A DNA stretch of 64,000 nucleotides from a virus (IMGVR_UViG_3300034082_003579), one strand, 5' to 3'; shown: positions 40,505 through 55,772, numbered from the stretch's first letter. Notes: generated by a model from the letters alone, not told the origin. Program-made: numbers and translations.

Positions 40505-40535
40505 AAAAAAAGCCCACCGAAATGGGCTTGGTGGT
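40505..40535. terminator. terminator-like hairpin upstream of the porin gene
   Basis: aaaaaagcccaccgaaatgggcttggtggtttt. Confidence 0.45.
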
Positions 40536-40766
40536 TTTAGTTACAAGGTATTTCCTACCCCGGTAGTGATCACGCCGCTAGACGTTCTGCTACAAAGCTA
40601 TCTTCGTTTGCTTTTATTGGTTTTTTACTTTTAACGACTATCTGTGTCGAGTTGTCCATGCCGTTACTTGTTGCCCAATCGAAACCTGGTCAGCCCCATC
40701 AGAAGCATTCTAAACTCTTTCTCATCTCTTGAACAATCGTCATCAGTTACTTGAGGAGAATGCTTT

Positions 40767-40800
40767 TGGTGGAGCTGGAGGGAATCGAACCCTCGTCTTG
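40767..40800 (-). other. tRNA 3'-half-like fragment (T-arm + acceptor + CCA), no 5' partner
   Basis: revcomp reads gagggttcgattccctc-cagctcc-a-cca; no complementary 5' acceptor strand found within 350 nt. Confidence 0.3.
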
Positions 40801-40833
40801 AACACTTTTCTCTTTACTTCATACAACAATTCT

Positions 40834-41046
40834 TTACAGTAAAAAAACCGCCGAACCCAGCAACACAATCAACACTGCAATAACTACAGCAAGTCGAATT
40901 GCATTTTTAAATTCTTTGTCGGGCATGGAAACTTCTTCCACTGCAGGTTTTTCCACCTGAGTTTTTACAGGTTCAGCATCAGCAGTTAGAGAAAGATACA
41001 CAAGATAAACTGCTGCTAATATTCCTAATATGATAAAGATCTTCAT
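40834..41046 (-). CDS. small membrane protein
   Basis: 70 aa, two hydrophobic helices. Confidence 0.3.
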   Translation of the reverse strand: MKIFIILGILAAVYLVYLSLTADAEPVKTQVEKPAVEEVSMPDKEFKNAIRLAVVIAVLIVLLGSAVFLL

Positions 41047-44835: not shown

Positions 44836-45531
44836 TTACTGTATACCAAATTCTTTGGCAGCAGCCTGTTTGAATTTTTCGTTGTTGGAAAAGATTCTAA
44901 CGCCGCTGTTGTCGAAACCAACAATGTTGGCTCCAGTTTCTGCATACTGTTGTGCCCATTCAAATATCTGTTCAGTTGGCATGCGCCCTGCATAAGATAA
45001 TCTAAGATAACGTTGATTTTCTAAGTATCTAATCAGTATTATAATACCACTTTTGGCTGGAGTCAACCAGTCTGGAATCTGTGTATTTTCTTTCCAATGA
45101 CACACAAAAGTCTTGCAAGGTGAATCGGGTCTAATGGGATAGATGCTGCAACCACTGCGATTGGCAAAGTAACAGGGCTTACCGGGACTAAAATCATGCC
45201 CGTAAGCAGACCCTGACAACCAACCATCGCAGCACTTGGTACAAGTACCGCAGGCACGATCAGCCTTTTTAGTAGTTTCTAATGCAAGAGGTATAATCAT
45301 ACTGTAATTATACCAGATCTCGACCTTGACATACAAAATATTGGGTATGGTAACGCTCTGATCAAGCAAGGGCGTGTGACCATTGCACTTGATCAGTGAT
45401 ACCATATTGAAATACACTAAATCTATTGTATCGTCAAATACAACTTTGCCCGGTTGACGCCGGACCGCCGGGTAGTGAATTAATCCACTACCGGTAGAGG
45501 ATTCTACATGGTGGCGTTTAATGTACTTCAA
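44836..45531 (-). CDS. YkgJ/UPF0153-like Cys-cluster protein
   Basis: CGTCTKCCDGW (CxxCxxCC) putative Zn/Fe-chelating domain; the true start may be internal. Confidence 0.45.
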   Translation of the reverse strand: MKYIKRHHVESSTGSGLIHYPAVRRQPGKVVFDDTIDLVYFNMVSLIKCNGHTPLLDQSVTIPNILYVKVEIWYNYSMIIPLALETTKKADRACGTCTKCCDGWLSGSAYGHDFSPGKPCYFANRSGCSIYPIRPDSPCKTFVCHWKENTQIPDWLTPAKSGIIILIRYLENQRYLRLSYAGRMPTEQIFEWAQQYAETGANIVGFDNSGVRIFSNNEKFKQAAAKEFGIQ

Positions 45532-45803
45532 TATGGTGTAGGCTAAATCGTCCCCGACTCCCCTACTTGAGTTGTCTACCCTGTCCGAATGATTTCTTTT
45601 ATATGGGCGTGATCATCAACACCCTACGATTTCTCCAGGCTCCCTCCATCGGGACTCTGAGGTAGATCGTAAGCACCCTTAACTTTATCGTGGAGTTAAT
45701 TCACGCCCTGTGAGTAACGGCTAGGGACGCCGGGATTCTTGAAAGTTCCGATATAACCCATCGTCACTTACAACCGTTGGACATATTGCTATGTCGTTTG
45801 ACC

Positions 45804-45888
45804 TGGTGGAGTATCCTGGGATCGAACCAGGCGTGCGCAAGCGCGGCGGATTTACAGTCCACTGCATCACCGTTGATGCTTCTACTCC
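45804..45888 (-). tRNA. tRNA-Tyr(GTA)
   Basis: acceptor ggagtag/ctactcc (wobble), anticodon stem gtgga/tccgc, loop cuGUAaa, long variable arm, T-loop ttcgatc. Confidence 0.75.
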
Positions 45889-47062: not shown

Positions 47063-47136
47063 TGGCGTATCCCCGAGGACTCGACCCTTGACTAGCGGTT
47101 TTGGAGACTGATATGCTGCCATTACATTAGAGACAC
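47063..47136 (-). tRNA. degenerate tRNA-Trp-like (CCA anticodon loop), possible pseudogene
   Basis: anticodon region cagtctccaaaaccgc is homologous to the Trp gene at 54559 but its 5' stem is mutated (3/5 pairs); T-loop gtcgagt. Confidence 0.35.
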
Positions 47137-47392: not shown

Positions 47393-47433
47393 TGGTGGAG
47401 TATCCTGGGCTCTACCATTGAACTACAGCCACC
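47393..47433 (-). pseudogene. chimeric tRNA fragment (His-like 5' half fused to Tyr-like 3' end)
   Basis: 41 nt: ggtggctgtagttcaatggtagagc + ccaggatactccacca; 17 nt identical to the 3' end of tRNA-Tyr at 45804; lies 22 nt upstream of the HNH gene. Confidence 0.5.
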
Positions 47434-47454
47434 ATTGTTACTACAATAAATATT

Positions 47455-47730
47455 TTGATGAATAAAGAACGAATTCCAGTTAATATGCGCCGCATCGTAA
47501 TTGAACGAGACGGATTACGCTGTGTATATTGCGGAGTTGATTTGCTTAGTAATGAAGTACACTTAGATCATGTAGTACCTGAATCCCAAGGCGGTCCGAC
47601 TTCTGTCGGTAATTTGCAAGTTACCTGCGGTAAATGTAATCTTGAAAAAGGTATACTAACCGAAAGCGAATTTGAAAATAAACTTCGTACACGAGCGTTA
47701 AACATACTAAACAGAATTGGTTACAAATAA
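47455..47730 (+). CDS. HNH endonuclease
   Basis: CVYCGV...HLDHVVP...GN...CNLEKG: HNH motif with zinc-finger cysteines. Confidence 0.75.
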   Translation: MMNKERIPVNMRRIVIERDGLRCVYCGVDLLSNEVHLDHVVPESQGGPTSVGNLQVTCGKCNLEKGILTESEFENKLRTRALNILNRIGYK

Positions 47731-47744
47731 ATTAACACAATATT

Positions 47745-48052
47745 GAAACATACTTAATAGGGAAGGACAGATATTCTAGCTCGGCTCGTCTCCCGAGATA
47801 TCAAATTCATTCTCATTACTCTCGCCTGTTATATCCGCCATACCCCGATTCAGCCCATACGGTAACCGTGGCTGACGTTGTAGTCCATGTTTCGTATGAG
47901 CAACATCTGCGACCAGACATTTACACCCATACTAACCTAACGGAAGCGATAACCCTATTGTGCTCACACGGGCGGTCGATATCAGGGTTTCGTCTTTTAG
48001 CCGTCCCTGAGTCACTTACCCACATGCTCACAAAAATATGCTTCAATATTGC
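47745..48052. repeat. long inverted-repeat hairpin element copy 1 (14-bp arms aatattgaaacata / tatgcttcaatatt, ~290-nt insert)
   Basis: arms nearly perfect complements; the right arm plus ~100 nt downstream (including a promoter) is repeated at 48147..48300. Confidence 0.6.
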
Positions 48053-48097
48053 GTCTAGTTTTTAAAGAACATTTAATGCATTTCTTACTATACAACT

Positions 48098-48126
48098 ATT
48101 ATACTGCTGAAACTATTTCTGGTCAA
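48098..48126 (-). promoter_or_regulatory. sigma70-like phage promoter TTGACC-N17-TATAAT
   Basis: TTGACCagaaatagtttcagcagTATAATagt; transcribes into hairpin element copy 1. Confidence 0.6.
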
Positions 48127-48146
48127 CTCGTTTGTGCGATTTAACA

Positions 48147-48225
48147 ACACAATATTGAAGCACACTACCCCGGACAACTCTTCGGACTGGGCTGTTTCAC
48201 CAGCTAAAATGTGTTTCAATATTGC
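48147..48225. repeat. long inverted-repeat hairpin element copy 2 (arms aatattgaagcacac / gtgtttcaatatt)
   Basis: same arm family as copy 1 with a ~45-nt loop; followed by the same gcgtYKagtttttaaagaac tail and promoter. Confidence 0.6.
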
Positions 48226-48270
48226 GTTGAGTTTTTAAAGAACGTTTTGTGCATTACTTACTATAAAACT

Positions 48271-48299
48271 ATTATAGCAACATGTTGATTGTTGGTCAA
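48271..48299 (-). promoter_or_regulatory. sigma70-like phage promoter TTGACC-N17-TATAAT
   Basis: TTGACCaacaatcaacatgttgcTATAATagt; transcribes into hairpin element copy 2. Confidence 0.6.
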
Positions 48300-48443
48300 C
48301 TGCTATTTGTGTTGTTGTAAAAACGCAACATACTATTTTCATCATCGATTCTATTTTTAATATACCACTATTATAACTCTGAAGCCGTTGCCGATCAACC
48401 CAATTTTTGGATAAATATCAATACAAAACGAATAGGAGCAGGT

Positions 48444-48896
48444 ATGGCAAACAAAGACTATAAAGAAATGAGCGCAAGCGAAAAGAAAAAAGAAGATTGG
48501 ATGAATTCAAAATGGCGTCCAATGATGGGTTGGATGTACATGGCAGTGTGTATGGCTGACTTTGTGCTGTTTCCAGTTCTCTGGAGCCTGGTACAAGCAG
48601 CACACGGCGGCAGTGTACAAACACAATGGAGTCCAATTACCTTGCAAGGCGCAGGATTATTCCACATGGCCATGGGTGCTATTTTGGGTATCGCAGCATT
48701 CGGACGCACACAAGAAAAAATAGCCGGTGCCAACAATGGCGGAATGGCTGCAGCACCTGCGGTCAGTTCGTTCTCTGCACAACCAACAAACAGTTTTAGC
48801 GCATCTGCACCTACCATAGCACCTGTGAGTTTCAGCAGCGGCGGAATTGCAGCAGGCAAAGCTCGTCCAGCTGAATTTGATCATCCGGCAATTTAA
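48444..48896 (+). CDS. membrane protein, putative holin
   Basis: 150 aa with 2-3 TM helices, immediately upstream of the endolysin. Confidence 0.4.
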   Translation: MANKDYKEMSASEKKKEDWMNSKWRPMMGWMYMAVCMADFVLFPVLWSLVQAAHGGSVQTQWSPITLQGAGLFHMAMGAILGIAAFGRTQEKIAGANNGGMAAAPAVSSFSAQPTNSFSASAPTIAPVSFSSGGIAAGKARPAEFDHPAI

Positions 48897-49137
48897 TAAG
48901 GAAAACAAAATGAAATTAATATACTCAACTATTTTAGCACTGAGCCTTGTTGCTGGTGCTCACGCACAAGACACCAAACCTGCCGAAAACAAAGGCGAAA
49001 AGAAAGAAGTCTGTACTGATGTCAAAGACAAGGCCGGTGCTGTGGTCAAGAACAAAGACGGCACGGTCAAACAGTCTTGCAAAACTATCACTGTGCGCAA
49101 GAAATACGAAGGTACTGCAGTGCCTGACAAAAAATAA
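48847..49137 (+). CDS. secreted small Lys-rich protein
   Basis: signal peptide MKLIYSTILALSLVAGAHA. Confidence 0.35.
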   Translation: MQQAKLVQLNLIIRQFNKENKMKLIYSTILALSLVAGAHAQDTKPAENKGEKKEVCTDVKDKAGAVVKNKDGTVKQSCKTITVRKKYEGTAVPDKK

Positions 49138-49150
49138 GGAGTACTAATAC

Positions 49151-50005
49151 ATGGCTTTTAATTTTAATTTTACTCAACAACAACTGGCACAACTGATTCC
49201 GGGTAATCCTTATGTGGCACAATGGTATTCTGCACTGAGCATGATCTTGCCTGACTATGGTATTGATACTGTGCCACGTGTGGCAGCGTTTGTTGCACAA
49301 TGTGCGCACGAAAGTGCCAACTTCAAGTTCCTGAAAGAAAACTTGAACTACAAGGCCGAAAGTCTAATGCGTGTCTGGCCCAGTCGGTTCCCTTCAATGG
49401 ATGTTGCTCGTCAATATGCCATGCAGCCAGAGAAGATCGCCAACAAGGTCTATGGTGGACGCATGGGCAATGGTACAGAAGAAACTGGTGACGGATGGCG
49501 TTATGCTGGCAAAGGTCTTATTCAGTTGACCGGTAAAGACAACTACACACGCTTTGCTGAAAGTATTGACACACCCGTGGAAGAAATTCCTGAATACCTA
49601 CAGACATTCGAAGGTGCTGTGCAATCAGCTTGCTGGTTTTGGGAAGTCAACAACCTCAATCAATGGGCTGATGCCGGCGATATCCTGACCTTAACCAAAC
49701 GCATCAACGGTGGTGTTATCGGTCTTGAAGATCGCAAAAAACACTATGCACATGCTTTACATGTGTTAGGTGGCGATTCAGCACATCATGTTGCAGAAAG
49801 TTCTGCTGCTGTCAACACAGCTCAAGTACTGCGTCGCGGTAGTCGTGGTGATACTGTGGCTGCTATGCAGATCAGACTAGGCCTATCCGGTGACGGCGAT
49901 TTTGGTCCAGCAACAGAACGTGCCTTAATGGGATGGCAACGTGAAAACGGATTAGAACCCGACGGCGTCGCTGGTCCAGCAACACTAGCTAAGTTGTTGG
50001 CATAA
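49151..50005 (+). CDS. endolysin: GH19 glycoside hydrolase with C-terminal peptidoglycan-binding domain
   Basis: CAHESANF...GKGLIQLTGKDNY GH19 catalytic blocks; C-terminal PG_binding_1-like repeat ...GDGDFGPATERAL. Confidence 0.75.
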   Translation: MAFNFNFTQQQLAQLIPGNPYVAQWYSALSMILPDYGIDTVPRVAAFVAQCAHESANFKFLKENLNYKAESLMRVWPSRFPSMDVARQYAMQPEKIANKVYGGRMGNGTEETGDGWRYAGKGLIQLTGKDNYTRFAESIDTPVEEIPEYLQTFEGAVQSACWFWEVNNLNQWADAGDILTLTKRINGGVIGLEDRKKHYAHALHVLGGDSAHHVAESSAAVNTAQVLRRGSRGDTVAAMQIRLGLSGDGDFGPATERALMGWQRENGLEPDGVAGPATLAKLLA

Positions 50006-50009
50006 TATC

Positions 50010-50450
50010 ATGTGGCAAATCATGTGGATACTGAATTTAATACCAGCTTGGCTATGGCACATACTACTGGGAGTTTCCCTGGTGACCATAGCTGCCACAT
50101 ATTTTCTACGCATGATTCCATTCTTTGGCACAAACGCAATTCAGTTGCGTTTTGCGGCTACCTTGATATTGATTTTTACTGTCTGGATGGAAGGCGGCAT
50201 AGCTAACGAAGCTAAATGGCAACAACGTATTCAGGACTTGGAAGCCCGAGTGGCTGAAGCCGAAAAAGCAGCTGCCGAAACCAATACCAAAATTGAAACA
50301 GTTTATGTTGATCGAGTCGAAGTGGTCAAAGAAATACAGTATGTGGTTCGCAAAGATATTGAACGTGCTGCCACTGAACTGGATGCCAACTGTCGTGTTT
50401 CGCCTCGCGCCATTGAACTATTAAATCAAGCCACAGGTGCTAAGAAATGA
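50010..50450 (+). CDS. i-spanin-like protein
   Basis: N-terminal TM, then coiled-coil QQRIQDLEARVAEAEKAAAE; follows the endolysin. Confidence 0.5.
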   Translation: MWQIMWILNLIPAWLWHILLGVSLVTIAATYFLRMIPFFGTNAIQLRFAATLILIFTVWMEGGIANEAKWQQRIQDLEARVAEAEKAAAETNTKIETVYVDRVEVVKEIQYVVRKDIERAATELDANCRVSPRAIELLNQATGAKK

Positions 50451-50704
50451 AATTTGTCGCCATTGCTGTTCTACTAGCGTTGACTGGCTGTGTTGCTCCA
50501 GTCAAACGAGAATTTCCTGCCATACCGCCCAGCTTGGAAAAGCCCTGCAGTCCTTTACTGGAAGTACCAAAAACTACCAAGCTCAGTGAAGTGTTAAAAG
50601 TAGTTACTGAAAACTACGCACTTTATGGTGCTTGTCAGATCAAAAATGAAACTTGGTTGGATTGGTATCAGAAACAAAAGAAAATATTTGACTCTGTAAA
50701 ATAA
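50447..50704 (+). CDS. o-spanin-like lipoprotein
   Basis: lipobox LTGC; start overlaps the i-spanin stop. Confidence 0.5.
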   Translation: MKFVAIAVLLALTGCVAPVKREFPAIPPSLEKPCSPLLEVPKTTKLSEVLKVVTENYALYGACQIKNETWLDWYQKQKKIFDSVK

Positions 50705-50705
50705 T

Positions 50706-50782
50706 TGGTGCGCAGTGACGGACTCGAACCGCCGACATCCCACTTGTAAGGAGGGCACTCTAACCAACTGAGTTAACCGCGC
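50706..50782 (-). tRNA. tRNA-Val(TAC)
   Basis: acceptor gcgcggt/actgcgc, D-arm actc..gagt, anticodon loop cuUACaa (one U-U in stem), T-loop ttcgagt. Confidence 0.65.
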
Positions 50783-50787
50783 ATGTT

Positions 50788-50871
50788 TGGTGCTCCAGGT
50801 CGGACTCGAACCGACACGCCTTTCGGCACTAGTTCCTAAGACTAGCGTGGCTACCATTACACCACCGGAGC
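50788..50871 (-). tRNA. tRNA-Leu(TAG)
   Basis: acceptor gctccgg/ctggagc, perfect anticodon stem ctagt/actag, loop cuUAGga, long variable arm, T arm gtcgg-ttcgagt-ccgac. Confidence 0.75.
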
Positions 50872-50901
50872 TTTATAAATATAACTCTTAGAGGAATACT
50901 T

Positions 50902-51342
50902 ATGAAAAAATTATTACTTGCATTACTATTTGTACCTGCGATTGCTGTATCTCAAACACCGAAAGAACCTGTGGGCGTCACATACGATGCTCAAATTATC
51001 CGCGTCAGCGATGGCGACACCATTGTGATTGCTGCACCATTCTTGCCTGCGCCCTTGAAACCCGAGTTAGCTGTGCGCATCTACGGAGTTGACACTCCGG
51101 AAAAAGGACACAGAGCACAATGTCCACAAGAAGCTGCACGTGCCGAACGAGCGTCGGCCTGGACCAATCAGCTGGTTGCCAGTAGTGCCAAGCGTCAAGT
51201 AATCTTATACAAGTGGGACAAGTTTGGCGGGCGTGTTATCGGTGACATTATCATCAACGGACAAAGTGTACGACGCGGACTTATTGCCAACGGACTGGCA
51301 CGTGAATATTACGGCGACGCAAAACAAAGCTGGTGTAACTAA
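50902..51342 (+). CDS. SNase-like (thermonuclease) secreted nuclease
   Basis: signal peptide; RVSDGDTIV...VRIYGVDTPEK = SNase Ca-binding/catalytic blocks. Confidence 0.65.
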   Translation: MKKLLLALLFVPAIAVSQTPKEPVGVTYDAQIIRVSDGDTIVIAAPFLPAPLKPELAVRIYGVDTPEKGHRAQCPQEAARAERASAWTNQLVASSAKRQVILYKWDKFGGRVIGDIIINGQSVRRGLIANGLAREYYGDAKQSWCN

Positions 51343-51566
51343 TCTCTGCGCTTGCGCCAAGTATAAGTTTGACCACTTGGCAACTGCCCATCACGAACAC
51401 TGTCTACACCCATTGCACCTACTTGATTAGGATTTTCCCCAACCATTGCAACATAGGCTCGACCTTGAGTTCGTAAATGGTTGGCTTCGGTTAGGGCCTC
51501 TACCATTTCTACATAATCTTTGCTGCATGCAGCACCGTCTGATGCTGTCCAATAAACTTTATACAT
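51339..51566 (-). CDS. hypothetical protein
   Basis: 75-aa ORF. Confidence 0.3.
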   Translation of the reverse strand: MYKVYWTASDGAACSKDYVEMVEALTEANHLRTQGRAYVAMVGENPNQVGAMGVDSVRDGQLPSGQTYTWRKRRD

Positions 51567-51590
51567 GTCTCTCTTCTCGTTACATTAAAT

Positions 51591-51666
51591 TGGTACCGAC
51601 TCGCGGTTTCGATCCGCGCCCTCGTGCTCTTCAGGCACACGCTTCCACCAGGTTAGCTTAGTCGGC
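51591..51666 (-). tRNA. tRNA-Phe(GAA)
   Basis: acceptor gccgact/agtcggt, anticodon stem tgtgc/gcacg, loop cuGAAga; unusual T-loop atcgaaa. Confidence 0.6.
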
Positions 51667-51674
51667 ATTAAAAT

Positions 51675-51748
51675 TGGTAGGTTCTAAAAGAATCGAACTT
51701 TTGTCTGCTGGATGTCGACCAGCAATTCTCCCATTGAACTAAGAACCT
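51675..51748 (-). tRNA. tRNA-Val(GAC) (tentative; C33)
   Basis: perfect acceptor aggttct/agaacct, perfect anticodon stem gctgg/ccagc, loop ucGACau, T arm aaaag-ttcgatt-ctttt. Confidence 0.5.
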
Positions 51749-51754
51749 AAAAAT

Positions 51755-51847
51755 TGGCGGGCAGCAGAGGAGTCGAACCCCATCCCCATTACAGAGAACC
51801 CAGTTTTCAAGGCTGGTCGCCGGACCATCCCAGCTGCATTGCTACCC
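51755..51847 (-). tRNA. tRNA-Ser(TGA)
   Basis: class II, 93 nt; acceptor gggtagc/gctgccc, anticodon loop cuUGAaa identical to E. coli Ser(UGA), long variable arm, T-loop ttcgact. Confidence 0.65.
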
Positions 51848-51856
51848 ATAAAAGGT

Positions 51857-51983
51857 GAACGAAGATATCTTCACTGCCACGCCCAGATAATGTTACTCAA
51901 CGGCAGGGGTACGCCACTTGGCGGTTAGGAAAGGTAACCCGTGTGCATTTCGCACTGCTCGGATATCTTCGTTCATTGATTGG
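51857..51983. repeat. 14-bp inverted repeat (tgaacgaagatatc / gatatcttcgttca) enclosing ~100 nt between tRNA-Ser and tRNA-Met
   Basis: perfect complementary arms; interior has a further hairpin cgccacttggcg. Confidence 0.5.
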
Positions 51984-52056
51984 TGGTGAAAGAGGGACTC
52001 GAACCCCCGACCTTGTCCGTATGAAGGACCTGCTCTACCAACTAAGCTATATCACC
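51981..52056 (-). tRNA. tRNA-Met(CAT), elongator type
   Basis: acceptor ggtgata/tttcacc, D-arm gctt..gagc, anticodon loop uuCAUac, T arm ggggg-ttcgagt-ccctc. Confidence 0.6.
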
Positions 52057-52144
52057 ATATTGAAGTACACTCTTGTAACTATCTCACACTCTAGAAATGC
52101 TTCACGAGACCAACGTCAGGGGTTGGCGAATGTACTTCAATATG
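52057..52144. repeat. long inverted-repeat hairpin element copy 3 (atattgaagtacac / gaatgtacttcaatat)
   Basis: 13-bp perfect stem beginning 1 nt from the 5' end of tRNA-Met(CAT). Confidence 0.6.
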
Positions 52145-52318
52145 CCCCCTGTCCCTAAACAAGGCGGAATATTGTCTTGTTATTCGGACGACAGTCCTCA
52201 GGCCTTGATAAGGATACTGACACTCAGCCACTTGTGCATGTATTTTTCGCCAGTTTGAGGATAACAGAATAGGGATAAACTGTCAGAGCCCTGGCACCCC
52301 GTGTTATGGTATAGACTA

Positions 52319-52387
52319 CCATATTGAAACACACTACTCTCTTTTTGGGTGCTGTCTAGAACAACGTCGCAATGTGTTTCAATATGG
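52319..52387. repeat. long inverted-repeat hairpin element copy 4 (ccatattgaaacacac / aatgtgtttcaatatgg)
   Basis: 15-bp perfect stem, 7 nt from the 3' end of tRNA-Lys. Confidence 0.6.
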
Positions 52388-52393
52388 TAACTG

Positions 52394-52470
52394 TGGTAGG
52401 GGCACTGAGACTCGAACTCAGAAAGCCGGATTAAAAGTCCGGTATGATAGACCAATTTCATCATACCCCC
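52394..52470 (-). tRNA. tRNA-Lys(TTT)
   Basis: acceptor gggggta/tgcccct, D-stem atga/tcat, perfect anticodon stem ccgga/tccgg, loop cuUUUaa, T arm ctgag-ttcgagt-ctcag. Confidence 0.7.
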
Positions 52471-52605
52471 GTTGCTTGACTTGCCGACGCATGGCCTTGT
52501 TGGGCTTGCGATGACTGCCTGCCCCTGTCTTTTTAAGTACCAAACAAACGAAGGGGTTACGTTTGGGTACGGTCAGTTTAGACTTCATGTCTAGCTCCTT
52601 AAAAA

Positions 52606-52920
52606 TTATGTTACTTTTTGTTTGTTTTTAACAGCACTAAACAACATTGACGCACGTTTGAGATCAAAGTTTTTGTGGCGGTACATGTAATCTTTTTTAC
52701 GCTCCGCTACTACTAGAGCTTGAGCTAACATGTACTTCTCGTTAAAATCCATGGACTTCATCATGGCGTCTTGCATGTCCATGACGTCTAGTGCATACTC
52801 CAGCCACTTCTCTGTTGCTTTAATGCTGTCGTAAGTGCTAAAGCCTGCGGACTTGTTGCTGGCGTTATACTTGTTAATAAAGTTGCGAGCTTGCATAATA
52901 AACTCCTTATTGATTAACAA
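52606..52920 (-). CDS. hypothetical protein
   Basis: 104-aa ORF inside the tRNA island. Confidence 0.4.
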   Translation of the reverse strand: MLINKEFIMQARNFINKYNASNKSAGFSTYDSIKATEKWLEYALDVMDMQDAMMKSMDFNEKYMLAQALVVAERKKDYMYRHKNFDLKRASMLFSAVKNKQKVT

Positions 52921-52984
52921 GTAAGTATTATAGCAAACAGCGAATTAACAGTCAAGTTGACTGTGGTATTTCTACAACACTATG

Positions 52985-53058
52985 TGGCAGGCCCACAAGG
53001 GTTCGAACCTTGACTGACAGAATCAAAATCTGTAGTGCTACCATTACACTATGGACCA
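52985..53058 (-). tRNA. tRNA-Gln(TTG)
   Basis: perfect anticodon stem acaga/tctgt, loop uuUUGau, D-arm gtgt..gcac, T arm caagg-ttcgaac-ccttg; 1-72 unpaired (U.U). Confidence 0.65.
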
Positions 53059-53064
53059 ACTGAT

Positions 53065-53141
53065 TGGCTCCCCGGGCTGGGCTTGAACCAGCGACATCGG
53101 CATTAACAGTGCCGCGCAACTACCAACTGTGCTACCGAGGA
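53065..53141 (-). tRNA. tRNA-Asn(GTT)
   Basis: acceptor tcctcgg/ccgggga, perfect anticodon stem cggca/tgccg, loop cuGUUaa, T arm gctgg-ttcaagc-ccagc. Confidence 0.7.
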
Positions 53142-53162
53142 ATAAAACTTTACTATACTGCT

Positions 53163-53191
53163 ATTGTAACTGAGACTGTATTACTGGTCAA
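53163..53191 (-). promoter_or_regulatory. sigma70-like promoter TTGACC-N17-TACAAT
   Basis: TTGACCagtaatacagtctcagtTACAAT upstream of tRNA-Asn/Gln. Confidence 0.55.
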
Positions 53192-53192
53192 C

Positions 53193-53666
53193 CTACTGGT
53201 AGTACTGATTGACATGCTGTTGTATCTTATCGTGGCTGATTTTGTAGTGATGATGCCCAGGACTGTGTTGTCCACGTCCGGAAGCATCAAACCAATTATC
53301 GTACGGAATTCCAAATCGATCAAAGTTGACATCAACTGAATGATACGCTCCTACAGTTATCGCATACACCGGCTTGACAGTGACCTGCGTTAACACTTGC
53401 CTGACTGCAACAGCACCAGCACTAAAGCCGTAAAGTTCATATGGTTGATTCACTTGCTGAACAAACTCAACTGCTGCTGCAGATTCGCGCCAGTTGTATA
53501 CTTGAGAACAAGCTGACTTGCGTTCGGCATATTGATCAAATGCAGCTTGATCAAACACACCACCGGCACCACGAAATCCAATGACATATAGATTACAGTC
53601 TGTGTCGGGTACAGCTGGTGCAGCCGCAGAGAAAAACCATAAGAACACAGTGAGAAAAATATCCAT
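53193..53666 (-). CDS. secreted alpha/beta-hydrolase-like protein
   Basis: signal peptide; GFSAG (GxSxG) nucleophile elbow. Confidence 0.45.
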   Translation of the reverse strand: MDIFLTVFLWFFSAAAPAVPDTDCNLYVIGFRGAGGVFDQAAFDQYAERKSACSQVYNWRESAAAVEFVQQVNQPYELYGFSAGAVAVRQVLTQVTVKPVYAITVGAYHSVDVNFDRFGIPYDNWFDASGRGQHSPGHHHYKISHDKIQQHVNQYYQ

Positions 53667-53679
53667 GTGTTATTTAACT

Positions 53680-53755
53680 TGGCCGGTCCTGAGAGACTCG
53701 AACTCCCAACCTCCAGTTTCGAAGACTGGCACTCTATCCATTGAGTTAAGGACCG
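53680..53755 (-). tRNA. tRNA-Arg(TCG)
   Basis: perfect acceptor cggtcct/aggaccg, D-arm actc..gagt, perfect anticodon stem ccagt/actgg, loop cuUCGaa, T-loop ttcgagt. Confidence 0.7.
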
Positions 53756-53760
53756 TGTTG

Positions 53761-53855
53761 TGGTAGTAGCGTAGAGATTCGAACTCTATCGTTGCAGCCC
53801 ATCTGACCGCTCTCCCGGGTTTATAAAACCCAGCCGCATACCAATGCTCGCTACC
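53761..53855 (-). tRNA. noncanonical 95-nt tRNA-like gene (anticodon loop uuUAUaa; identity unclear)
   Basis: good acceptor ggtagcg/cgctact and T arm tagag-ttcgaat-ctcta, but D-stem gcat/atgc has a 4-nt loop and the variable region is 26 nt; best anticodon stem tgggt/acccg gives UAU. Confidence 0.4.
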
Positions 53856-53866
53856 ATTAAAACTTT

Positions 53867-53944
53867 TGGAAGTAAGGGTGGGATTCGAACCCACGGTTTT
53901 TGCGCTTTGCAGGCGCATGCATTGGACCACTCTGCCACCTTACT
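53867..53944 (-). tRNA. tRNA-Cys(GCA)
   Basis: perfect acceptor agtaagg/ccttact with U73 discriminator, perfect anticodon stem tgcgc/gcgca, loop cuGCAaa, T arm gtggg-ttcgaat-cccac. Confidence 0.75.
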
Positions 53945-53949
53945 ATTGT

Positions 53950-54025
53950 TGGTGCTGATGGTGAGGATTGAACTCACGACCTCATCCTTACCAAGGATGC
54001 GCGACTACCACTGTGCTACACCAGC
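53950..54025 (-). tRNA. tRNA-Thr(GGT)
   Basis: acceptor gctggtg/catcagc, perfect anticodon stem catcc/ggatg, loop uuGGUaa, T arm gtgag-ttcaatc-ctcac. Confidence 0.7.
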
Positions 54026-54031
54026 GAACCT

Positions 54032-54517
54032 TTATGCTGCTTTTGCCTGCATGTCTAACACTTCTTTTAAACGGTCGGCAGCATAACTTGCAGCAAAAGC
54101 TTGTGGCTTAACAAAGGGTACAACATTACACATACCTTTGATGTAGCCAATGGCTTCGTTTACCACGCATGAACTACCGTGCAGTTCACTTGGGTTGATG
54201 TCCAAGTGAACTTCCACAATACGATCTTCCAACACATCCTGCAGCTTTAAATACAACTCTGCAATCTTGTACACTTCTGTCATTAGTCGCATGCGTGGTT
54301 TGTCTTTCTTGCTATCCCAATCACGTTCACGTTGTACTTCACCGAAAATCTTACAACCGTTGTTGCCATTGATGTGAACAACGATGGCCAAGGTGTAATC
54401 GGCAAACCATGCTCCATCCACGGAGAATCGAGAACTGTCACCCCCGATGTAAATTCTAGTACCGGGACCTTGAGCTTCGATGAACTGCCGTACTTCATCA
54501 ATGTCGATCTTACGCAT
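54032..54517 (-). CDS. hypothetical protein
   Basis: 161-aa ORF between tRNA-Thr and tRNA-Trp. Confidence 0.4.
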   Translation of the reverse strand: MRKIDIDEVRQFIEAQGPGTRIYIGGDSSRFSVDGAWFADYTLAIVVHINGNNGCKIFGEVQRERDWDSKKDKPRMRLMTEVYKIAELYLKLQDVLEDRIVEVHLDINPSELHGSSCVVNEAIGYIKGMCNVVPFVKPQAFAASYAADRLKEVLDMQAKAA

Positions 54518-54558
54518 TATAACCTCTTGTTTGTTAGCGTACTTTTAACTACAAAAAC

Positions 54559-54634
<76 letters not shown>

Positions 54635-54641
54635 ATAAACT

Positions 54642-54717
54642 TGGTGCGGGGTACAGGGTTCGAACCTGCGACCTGAACGTTGGCAACGTTCCGCTCTACC
54701 AGCTGAGCTAACCACGC
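54642..54717 (-). tRNA. tRNA-Gly(GCC)
   Basis: D-arm gctc-agctggta-gagc, perfect anticodon stem gaacg/cgttc, loop uuGCCaa, T-loop ttcgaac. Confidence 0.75.
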
Positions 54718-54735
54718 ATTATAACTATTTAACCT

Positions 54736-54810
54736 TGGTGGACCGTGGGAGAATCGAACTCCCGCTTCATGCTTGCAAAGCACATGTGCTACCACTATCA
54801 CTAACAGCCC
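54736..54810 (-). tRNA. tRNA-Ala(TGC)
   Basis: G3:U70 wobble identity pair present, anticodon loop uuUGCaa, T arm gggag-ttcgatt-ctccc. Confidence 0.75.
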
Positions 54811-54819
54811 ATTAAAACT

Positions 54820-54895
54820 TGGTCTCCATACGAGGATTTGAACCTCGACCACATGGTCCCAAACCATGCACGCTACCAGATTACGCCATACGGAG
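54820..54895 (-). tRNA. tRNA-Pro(TGG)
   Basis: acceptor ctccgta/tatggag, perfect anticodon stem catgg/ccatg, loop uuUGGga, T arm cgagg-ttcaaat-cctcg. Confidence 0.75.
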
Positions 54896-54904
54896 ATAAA
54901 AACT

Positions 54905-54993
54905 TGGTGGACGAAGGTAGGACTCGAACCTACTACAAAGCTACGAAGGCAGCATAACTCATGCTACGAGCCGTTTCCTAACGGCGTTCGCCC
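54905..54993 (-). tRNA. noncanonical ~89-nt class II-like tRNA-like gene (anticodon unresolved; possible pseudogene)
   Basis: acceptor gggcgaa/ttcgtcc + A + CCA and T arm gtagg-ttcgagt-cctac are intact, but the only 5-bp stem in anticodon position has loop ugaguua (G33); internal direct repeat tcgtagc x2 and no variable-arm hairpin. Confidence 0.35.
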
Positions 54994-55002
54994 ATTAAAA
55001 CT

Positions 55003-55077
55003 TGGTACTGCATACGGGTTACGATCCCGTCTGGTCACCTTGAAAGGGTGATGACCTCACCAGAAGTCGAATGCAGC
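55003..55077 (-). tRNA. tRNA-Glu(TTC), second copy
   Basis: acceptor gctgcat/atgcagt, D-stem gact/ggtc, perfect anticodon stem tcacc/ggtga, loop cuUUCaa (E. coli Glu-like); unusual T-loop atcgtaa. Confidence 0.6.
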
Positions 55078-55083
55078 ATTAAC

Positions 55084-55159
55084 TGGCACCGTAGACGGGA
55101 ATCAAACCCGCTGCGATCTGATAGACAGTCAGATATCACCATCAGGTGGACTCTACGGT
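55084..55159 (-). tRNA. tRNA-like with GTC anticodon loop and noncanonical D-arm (possible Asp paralog/pseudogene)
   Basis: perfect acceptor accgtag/ctacggt, anticodon stem tctga/tcaga, loop cuGUCua; D-stem cacc/ggtg shifted with a 4-nt loop; T-loop tttgatt lacks C56. Confidence 0.4.
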
Positions 55160-55165
55160 ATAACT

Positions 55166-55241
55166 TGGTACCTAGTACTGGGCTTGAACCAGTGACCTAT
55201 GCGTTATCAACACATTGCTCTACCAACTGAGCTAACTAGGC
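55166..55241 (-). tRNA. tRNA-Ile(GAT)
   Basis: D-arm gctc-agttggta-gagc, anticodon stem atgtg/cgcat, loop uuGAUaa, T arm actgg-ttcaagc-ccagt. Confidence 0.7.
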
Positions 55242-55246
55242 ATTAA

Positions 55247-55327
55247 CAATTTATTGAGCACACTACCCGATTAAACCTTTGCAATGCCATTGCTGATTCG
55301 GGTTCGTATAATGTACTCAATAAATTG
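55247..55327. repeat. long inverted-repeat hairpin element copy 5 (caatttattgagcacac / gtactcaataaattg)
   Basis: left arm and loop start (..gagcacactaccc..) homologous to copy 2; 6 nt from the 5' end of tRNA-Ile(GAT). Confidence 0.55.
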
Positions 55328-55689
55328 TAGTGGTTGTCCCACTACTGTCCATCTTACTCTTGCTGTTACCGCCAGCAATTTCACATCCGGAACCCCGCCC
55401 ATTCGAGCATGTTTAGCGTGGGCTCAAGGTTCTCGTTACCTATTCCACGTACTGCTGAAAACAAAAAACCCTAGGGTTTAGCCTAGGGTCTGTGTAGTTT
55501 TGGATATTAGCTATGTAGCTTAACTATCCCTATCTCCACGGACCCGACTTGTTCCCTCTGGTGTGCGATCACTTGTAATATTCATGCCCGCAAACGCACA
55601 CGCTGACCAATAGGCGACTGTGCCTAGTTTGGGCTGTTGTGAGGATATTTGCGAGAGATGGTTATGTGTGTTCATTTTCATATTAAAGT

Positions 55690-55718
55690 AATTGTACTGC
55701 AAAGACCAGTAATGGTCA
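55690..55718 (-). promoter_or_regulatory. tandem promoter 1 TTGACC-N17-TACAAT
   Basis: TTGACCattactggtctttgcagTACAAT; first of two ~80-nt tandem copies upstream of the tRNA cluster. Confidence 0.55.
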
Positions 55719-55772
55719 ACCTGTATTTCTATTTAGTCCTAAGAAATCACTTGTTTAATTTCTTAAAACATA

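Follow-up and report, generated by a model that had tools for sequence, protein, structure and literature searches.

What are the long hairpins that lie among the transfer RNA (tRNA) genes of an uncultured phage? The question is raised by a 64,000-nucleotide (nt) stretch of viral DNA, IMGVR_UViG_3300034082_003579 (the window in what follows), in which a first-pass annotation had marked five elements with AU-rich inverted arms flanking tRNA ends and promoters, and had read them as RNase III processing signals, as mobile elements resembling miniature inverted-repeat transposable elements (MITEs), or as stable small RNAs. We find that these elements, together with a sixth copy, belong to a large phage-specific family of RNAs, here called clamp-stem elements, which is encoded on the same strand as the tRNAs, in array spacers and leaders, and in which a conserved closing helix (the clamp) encloses a variable insert. 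All 29 ARAGORN calls in the window, comprising 28 tRNAs and a permuted transfer-messenger RNA (tmRNA), are on the minus strand, as are strong TTGACC-N17-TATAAT promoters. Megablast of the window against cultured phages returned no close relative, only the tRNAs being matched.

Six hairpins in the window

A sequence check placed the five elements where they had been annotated, and an unrestricted inverted-repeat scan and a fuzzy scan for the family each added exactly one more, c6 (45401-45537), outside the range first described. Folded as minus-strand RNA, every copy forms a long closing helix round a structured interior, with fold z-scores of -3.7 to -7.5 that no shuffle equalled. The inverted arms stood up to this analysis, although the length of 13-16 base pairs (bp) assigned to them did not: the six helices comprise 18-25 pairs each, and only the 17-bp core of c4 is perfect. 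The arm motif occurs 15 times in the window against 5.1±2.0 expected, and the 12 of these that deviate at no more than one position all belong to the arms of c1-c4 and c6.

All six copies lie on the minus strand. The 21-bp clamp of c6 (ACCAUAUUGAAGUACAUUAAA / UUUAGUGUAUUUCAAUAUGGU; 19 Watson-Crick and 2 G·U pairs) closes a 95-nt insert with four branches (minimum free energy -61.1, z -7.5). In c1 (47734-48055), a 22-bp clamp of 18 Watson-Crick and 4 G·U pairs encloses a multibranched insert of 278 nt (minimum free energy -112, z -4.5), for which we found no Rfam match, no homologue in 120 related loci and only short open reading frames (ORFs); the first-pass annotation, too, had seen no convincing ORF in this loop. 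The inserts of c2 (48145-48229; z -5.3), c3 (52054-52146; z -3.7) and c4 (52314-52392; z -7.3) are shorter, at 37, 55 and 31 nt, and their helices contain 19 Watson-Crick pairs, 3 G·U pairs and 2 mismatches in c2, 16, 2 and 1 in c3, and 19, 4 and 1 in c4. A covariance model of the clamp scored 17.8 bits on the minus strand and 16.1 on the plus strand for c2, and 33.2 and 28.4 bits for c4. The diverged member of the set is c5 (55246-55328; z -5.7; 21 Watson-Crick pairs, 3 G·U pairs and 1 mismatch), in which one base pair of the core is deleted (UUAUUGA-G / C-UCAAUAA), the inner ACAUU/AGUGU signature and its U·G pair being kept. In total, the six helices contain 18 G·U pairs on the minus-strand RNA, each of which would be an A·C mismatch on the plus strand; the functional strand of the hairpins is therefore the minus strand, and this asymmetry indicates that the structure is selected in RNA of the tRNA strand. 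The view that these are RNA-level hairpins is borne out, with pairing that follows the tRNA transcript.

The first-pass account of the surroundings also held. The 3' end of the c3 core (52057) directly adjoins the 5' nucleotide (52056) of tRNA-Met (CAU; 51981-52056), and c5 lies 4 nt upstream of tRNA-Ile (GAU; 55166-55241). Downstream of the CCA end (52394) of tRNA-Lys (UUU; 52394-52470), c4 begins after 1 nt if measured from its extended stem, 4 nt from its perfect arms (52317-52389) and 8 nt from its ATATTGAA core. Both c1 and c2 lie downstream of minus-strand sigma-70-type promoters of the form TTGACC-17-TATAAT, that of c1 (48098-48126) matching at 11 of 12 positions and belonging to repeat family D2, and that of c2 (48271-48299) carrying a TG and belonging to families D2 and D9; a third promoter lies at 48370-48398. 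The flanks that c1 and c2 have in common are 87% identical across 71 nt (repeat D9).

A phage-specific clamp around unrelated inserts

IMG/VR was scanned with a first pattern, ATATTGAARYAY-N35-65-RTRYTTCAATAT, which matched at least 120 loci; with the window, these form a first set of 121 sequences holding 1498 tRNAs. A second core variant, UAUAAAA...UUYUAUA, was spotted in these first loci, and a scan with it again gave at least 120 loci; the second set comprises 115 new loci, holding 1836 tRNAs. Among the loci listed, on contigs of 4-400 kb, nearly all lie in tRNA arrays. A covariance-model search, which had been proposed as a check at the outset, recovered only the two short-insert copies; since such a model penalises long inserts, we used our own fuzzy and anchor-based scanners instead.

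In 596 Gb of bacterial and archaeal genomes, the first pattern gave 44 matches, about 6 of them real. These are all on tRNA-array contigs of metagenome-assembled genomes, with Planktophila, Aquiluna, Crocinitomicaceae and Polynucleobacter among the taxa, and are most likely phage contigs; the other 38 were set down to chance in AT-rich DNA because they have no nearby tRNA and lack the inner signature described below. The element was not found in cultured phage records by megablast or blastn, which returned only tRNAs and chance matches. Searches of Rfam 15 gave no matching family for the window hairpins (to E≤5) and, in 14 related loci, only tRNAs, permuted tmRNA and one group I intron, and a description of the elements was not found in the searchable full-text literature. 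To judge from Rfam 15 and from the papers that could be searched, the clamp-stem family appears not to have been described before, and at present it escapes automated annotation and Rfam altogether.

The clamp follows the consensus 5'-(N)CCA UAUUGAA RYAYAUU ... AGUGURY UUCAAUA UGG(N)-3'; oriented by tRNA strand, 148 distinct copies give ACCAUAUUGAA(G/a)(C/u)A(C/u)AUU - insert - AGUGU(G/a)(U/c)UUCAAUAUGGU. Helix length is 20.3±2.2 bp across 160 distinct copies, in stems that have no bulges and few mismatches. Of the aligned cells, 97.3% are paired, and seven pairs have changed on both sides, values that none of 500 shuffles reached and a signal that is abolished by shifting the partner columns. 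Conserved arm pairing with compensatory changes in homologous phages, a check set beforehand in the first-pass annotation, was accordingly observed. The outer three pairs covary (CC/GG, UU/AA, GC/GC and others), and the outer 8 bp are A/U-rich, the inner 7 bp being richer in G-C. Two wobbles are fixed. One, U20·G33, lies near the top of the stem and was seen in 49 of the 64 copies aligned; at the other, G15·U38, which involves the R position, 30 copies have G·U, 18 A-U and 15 G-C. When long stems were collected with no sequence filter, the inner RYAYAYU/AGURURY signature appeared 221 times in the tRNA sense and never in antisense.

The outer 8 nt take two major forms, AUAUUGAA and AUAUAAAA, and many minor ones with compensated changes; in the AUAUAAAA form an A faces an invariant C, giving an A·C mismatch. 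Such outer-core forms coexist inside single genomes, c5 being one of them, and the idea of genome-specific clamp variants arising by concerted evolution was set aside, as its signal was weak (0.34 within loci versus 0.25 between). An 'empty' element of 35 nt, made up of the clamp and a tetraloop, identifies the clamp as the core unit. Conservation of the clamp with its fixed wobbles suggests a specific reader protein or nuclease, or else a copy-and-paste origin.

The inserts range from 4 to about 290 nt, and the 180 elements of the first set fall into 109 insert clusters. The six inserts of the window are mutually unrelated, and only that of c4 and part of that of c6 have orthologues in the sampled loci. 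For the c4 type, at least 8 orthologues were found in IMG/VR, in which the inner hairpin covaries through UA/CG exchanges. In an insert type linked to tRNA-Gln and tRNA-Lys, compensatory changes have altered both sides of four pairs, and a UUAUCG loop is invariant; this loop, together with a AAAGAGAG tract, exemplifies the conserved loops of the inserts. Comparison of c6 with its orthologue in locus L079 revealed compensatory changes in two inner helices and showed that an entire hairpin module had been gained or lost. Hairpins resembling a tRNA T-arm (GGUUCGAAUCC) were found in 10 of the 107 insert types, where 0.4 would be expected, usually stacked beside the 3' arm of the clamp; this module is absent from the six window copies. 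Insert structures are thus maintained by compensatory changes, that is, they are under selection.

tRNA ends and a proposed release of the hairpins

The nearest tRNA is on the same strand as the hairpin in 141 cases and on the opposite strand in 14 in the first set, and in 127 and 8 cases, respectively, in the second. In 47 of the 180 first-set copies, the last base of the preceding tRNA's CCA is where the stem starts, and it doubles as the opening A of AUAUUGAA; in the second set, 102 of 135 stems start at this terminal A. Stems end at the 5' end of the next tRNA in 19 of 180 and 39 of 135, and several elements exactly fill a tRNA-tRNA spacer. The stem thereby pairs with the tRNA's own NCCA, and the base facing the discriminator covaries with it (A-U 34, G-C 6, C-G 2, G·U 9). 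Where ARAGORN calls no tRNA upstream, an NCCA still flanks 67 of 123 distinct copies (~55%), often as the end of an uncalled tRNA or of another structured RNA ending in CCA. Family size, exact phasing with CCA and covariation inside the inserts all lie beyond what the first-pass annotation had seen.

Most junctions do without a hairpin: 1088 of 1210 adjacent tRNA pairs (~90%) have none, with a median spacer of 9 nt. At the Leu(UAG)-Ala(UGC) junction, three loci have a 9-nt spacer and a fourth an unrelated 20-nt spacer, whereas in five others the spacer is taken up precisely by a hairpin, whose clamp variants are compensated and whose inserts are of three different kinds; elsewhere too, the same tRNA pairs are separated in relatives by 4-9 nt. 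Because most junctions lack a hairpin and the same junction may be empty or filled, the hairpins are not needed for tRNA release, and at any given junction they are optional passengers.

We posit that clamp-stem elements are small RNAs excised by tRNA-end processing, a model to which we give about an even chance of being right. The coincidence of their ends with tRNA ends predicts release by RNase P together with tRNA 3'-end endonucleases. Co-transcribed with the tRNAs, an element would receive its 3' end from the RNase P cut at the downstream tRNA and its 5' end from an endonuclease of the RNase E or RNase Z type acting directly behind CCA. The product would be an RNA with paired ends, expected to resist exonucleases and 5'-end-dependent decay, in which the clamp would be the common stabilising handle and the insert the working part. 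In E. coli, RNase E cuts immediately after CCA, removing hairpins downstream of proline tRNAs (PMC5291269). A role for RNase III in processing the hairpins is also possible. Among the first-pass readings, that of stable small RNAs fits best; the elements are possibly stable, a property that we infer.

Several points weigh against excision as the explanation. Release and stability are what we infer here, and exact abutment at both sides is found in only a minority of copies. In the window, c1 and c2 follow their own promoters and not a tRNA. Pairing would lock the CCA into a stable helix, which might obstruct rather than aid cutting of the RNase E type, and the model leaves unexplained why the clamp is conserved over more than 100 insert types, with its two wobbles and the A·C of the second subfamily. 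More ambitiously, the clamp might be a portable scaffold, a conserved handle of 18-20 bp docked on tRNA CCA ends, with which large uncultured phages could express, excise and stabilise more than 100 small structured RNAs from their tRNA operons; cassettes would be acquired and exchanged at tRNA 3' ends, a protein would read the wobbles, and the inserts, a part of which would mimic tRNAs, would act in trans on the host, for instance by sponging RNAs or by decoying tRNA-targeting defences. This broader proposal is tentative, and we think it rather unlikely.

As a kind of RNA, we rate the elements as spacer-derived, or tRNA-punctuated, RNAs with processing stems. Like the E. coli 3'ETS-leuZ sponge, mitochondrial tRNA punctuation and synthetic tRNA-guide RNA (tRNA-gRNA) arrays, they are non-tRNA RNAs beside tRNAs, with coinciding ends; the stable 'species 1 and 2' RNAs of the T4 tRNA cluster are a further spacer-derived comparison. 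They differ in that a single closing helix is shared by many copies and by over 100 inserts, in that the family is restricted to uncultured phages, and in a precursor helix that pairs the tRNA's NCCA; a shared clamp is not described for those examples. GOLLD and ROOL are large structured non-coding RNAs beside phage tRNA islands (PMC12286853). The clamp-stem elements resemble them in being structured non-coding RNAs in that setting, but are unrelated in sequence and structure, have no Rfam matches, and are small (about 35-320 nt), modular and present in several copies per genome.

Phage tRNA islands are usually read as stores for codon supply or against host defences; here, in a large group of uncultured phages, they also carry modular small structured RNAs. 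If the excision model is true, these would be a natural bacterial-virus counterpart of tRNA-punctuated release and of engineered tRNA-guide-RNA arrays, and a ready-made stabilising scaffold for RNA expression; we know of no earlier bacterial-virus counterpart of tRNA-punctuated RNA release. The family also offers over 100 conserved RNA structures for study, and its clamp is a defined sequence with which the protein or nuclease that recognises it could be sought.

The first-pass annotation had favoured RNase III signals that release tRNAs from a polycistronic precursor. Spelled out, the host enzyme would cut the ~20-bp duplex between tRNAs, the AU-rich stubs would melt for RNase P and exonucleases, and the GC-richer half would cap the insert. 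The tie to tRNA ends is upheld, and the roughly two-turn helix is compatible with RNase III. Helix lengths cluster at two helical turns, which is the duplex size that RNase III needs; the unbulged, little-mismatched stems and the contrast between their outer and inner halves agree with it, as does the existence of the minimal 35-nt tetraloop-only element, and a blunt hairpin on a tRNA 3' end would stop exonuclease trimming, so that an endonuclease would be required. With the RNase III stems of T7 early-region sites such as R1.1, of the 16S and 23S ribosomal RNA flanks and of 23S intervening sequences, the clamp shares a long, near-perfect duplex of about two turns that flanks an RNA segment in a polycistronic stable-RNA transcript, and with the 23S intervening sequences also sporadic occurrence and a variable interior. 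Unlike them, it has a conserved sequence with fixed wobbles and a base-exact start at CCA, encloses a variable insert and not a tRNA, and is a putative RNase III substrate. The supposed need for the hairpins in tRNA release fell to the 1088 of 1210 junctions without one and to identical tRNA pairs with spacers of 4-9 nt. Such signals account neither for stems that are phased to the exact base with CCA and with the start of the following tRNA, nor for the conserved sequence, the fixed wobbles and the selection on insert structure; no RNase III gene was seen among the window ORFs scanned. We consider this explanation of the family unlikely.

Alternatively, the hairpins could be selfish palindromic insertions at tRNA 3' ends that carry functionless inserts. 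Recombination or microhomology (ACCA ... UGG), and not a transposase, would spread them, and their excision during tRNA processing would make them tolerable. Presence/absence polymorphism at a single junction such as Leu(UAG)-Ala(UGC), the 109 insert clusters among 180 elements, several outer-core variants per genome, a start almost always at CCA and the restriction to phage tRNA arrays would all be expected of such insertions, and terminal inverted repeats, many dispersed copies and polymorphic occurrence are likewise features of MITEs and palindromic repeats. However, the target-site duplications for which the first-pass annotation had advised a search were not found, 2-6 nt direct repeats flanking the arms of 155 elements occurring at the level of shuffled controls; on this, and on interiors that fall into so many unrelated clusters, its classical MITE reading fails. 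No associated transposase was found, and other loci show no link between hairpins and the HNH gene that neighbours c1. The asymmetry of the arms tracks the transcribed strand, which is not required of an element acting at the DNA level, and insert helices are kept by compensatory substitutions. We regard this origin as distinctly unlikely.

A third alternative would make the clamp a protein-binding handle comparable to Y RNA or YrlA, whose wobbles are read by a phage or host protein and whose inserts, some of them tRNA-like, are decoys or adaptors, for example against tRNA-targeting defences. In its favour, the sequence is conserved beyond what pairing needs (inner CACAUU/AGUGUG, fixed U·G and G·U, and an invariant C facing G or A), and T-arm-like GGUUCGAAUCC hairpins by the 3' arm are enriched as described above. 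YrlA (RF02553), which is reported in phages near tRNAs, similarly has 5' and 3' ends that form a long stem, and its tRNA-like part may be comparable to the T-arm-like hairpin of some clamp inserts. The Rfam YrlA model, however, has no match on the hairpins, its sole match in the window (18.8 bits, E 4.7) overlapping a tRNA; the stem contains no bulged helix of the Ro-binding type, only ~10% of inserts are tRNA-like, and neither an rsr gene nor any Ro/TROVE protein was seen among the ORFs scanned. The outer clamp variants are not genome-specific, and the only conserved protein embedded in the arrays is a DUF458 RNase H-like protein that also occurs in the clamp-free array of phage DLP6. We judge a handle of this kind to be very unlikely.

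Lastly, DNA recombination modules like the T4 promoter-early stem-loop (PeSL) cassettes, whose arms would shuffle tRNA genes between co-infecting phages, are highly improbable: near-identical 18-bp arms do flank tRNA genes in hundreds of phages, tRNA order varies among relatives and copies of a repeated promoter precede c1 and c2, but compensatory changes join the arms across the insert and not across the tRNA, the wobble asymmetry is strand-specific and follows transcription, and a promoter accompanies only 2 of the 6 window copies.

Some narrower candidates were also rejected. Mimicry of a CRISPR repeat or an anti-CRISPR RNA, suggested by a AUUGAAAC-like string, was discarded as positions within it vary (R, Y) and the repeats are inverted. 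CRISPR or TIGR-type arrays do not fit arms that are inverted, spacing that is irregular and tRNAs that lie between the units. The R'/R'' boxes of integron attC sites are absent, and no U-tract follows the stems, as a terminator would have.

Other RNAs and genes of the array

Hairpins of similar design but with unrelated stems were also seen in tRNA spacers. One (51856-51975, minus strand; inverted repeat I22; z -3.3) takes up the spacer that separates tRNA-Met from a tRNA-like gene; its arms (UGAACGAAGAUAUC) pair perfectly over 14 bp around an insert of 92 nt, and it has partial homologues in loci L020 and L104. Others occur in L005, L006 and L009, and a further arm, UUUUUAUAGUCAAGCAUCGA, encloses inserts of 113-118 nt; the clamp-plus-insert design is therefore wider than the AUAUUGAA family.

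Two longer non-coding stretches were noted on the minus strand. The first, of ~260 nt (45538-45805), runs from tRNA-Tyr to c6 and ends ...GUAGCCUACACCA right at the c6 clamp; it is 86-87% identical across 192 nt in L002 and L079, has no Rfam match and, by eye and unaligned, resembles a recurrent spacer RNA of 190-300 nt (...CCGUUAC...GGACAGNGUAAC..CUCA...) found in many loci. The second (55460-55720) is an RNA of ~230 nt without an ORF or an Rfam match, between two tandem promoters (55801, 55719) and a strong intrinsic terminator (55491-55466); a wider query, 55329-55680, gave BLAST matches of ~70-79% identity in 13 related loci.

The DUF458/YkuK RNase H-like protein (PF04308, phrog_11311) is encoded within the tRNA array, at 54032-54517 on the minus strand. 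Among 26 related loci, its gene mostly has a same-strand tRNA 14-28 nt upstream and another 6-30 nt downstream, and it is likewise flanked by tRNAs in the array of the cultured Stenotrophomonas phage DLP6, at 62% identity. This placement suggests a tRNA-related nuclease. A nuclease dedicated to the hairpins was rejected, since the DLP6 array has no clamp hairpins, which makes the gene tRNA-array-specific and not hairpin-specific.

Beside c1, a free-standing HNH endonuclease gene (47455-47730) lies on the plus strand, opposite to the array. It was considered as a partner of the hairpin and dismissed as incidental, HNH homologues in 15 other loci not being adjacent to hairpins. Adjoining it is a chimeric tRNA fragment (47393-47436), in which 17 nt identical to the 3' end of tRNA-Tyr (45808-45824) are joined to the 5' acceptor and D-arm of another tRNA; from its sequence, this looks like the footprint of endonuclease-mediated recombination in the array.

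ARAGORN missed several tRNA or tRNA-like genes on the minus strand, at 45807-45888, 47066-47136, 51754-51855, 54905-54996 and 55087-55160. They include tRNA-Tyr (Rfam 33.5 bits), a further tRNA (37.8 bits), one RNA with an acceptor stem, T-arm and CCA but no Rfam match, and two RNAs with long variable arms that resemble the Sec model at 33 and 31 bits, below its gathering score. The gene at 51754-51855 is ~90% identical in 11 loci. The tmRNA (40507-40877, minus strand) is a circularly permuted, two-piece molecule of beta-proteobacterial type with the tag ANEDSFVAERLAA, and a related permuted tmRNA is present in L002.

On the plus strand, an insertion in the middle of the tRNA array (48444-51342) encodes a secreted SNase-family nuclease (Pfam) and what we take, from translations only, to be a probable lysis cassette, with a membrane protein, a small lipoprotein, an endolysin-like protein with an apparent peptidoglycan-binding domain and spanin-like ORFs. 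Taken together, the accessory genes of the window are assigned by Pfam to radical SAM enzymes, a carbamoyltransferase, a TctA transporter, a CHASE2 cyclase and an SNase nuclease; to these, reading of the translations presumably adds PstS, a porin, GroES/GroEL and the lysis cassette. In a related phage, the tRNA array contains a group I intron (L019, 13185-13378; Rfam 53.4 bits).

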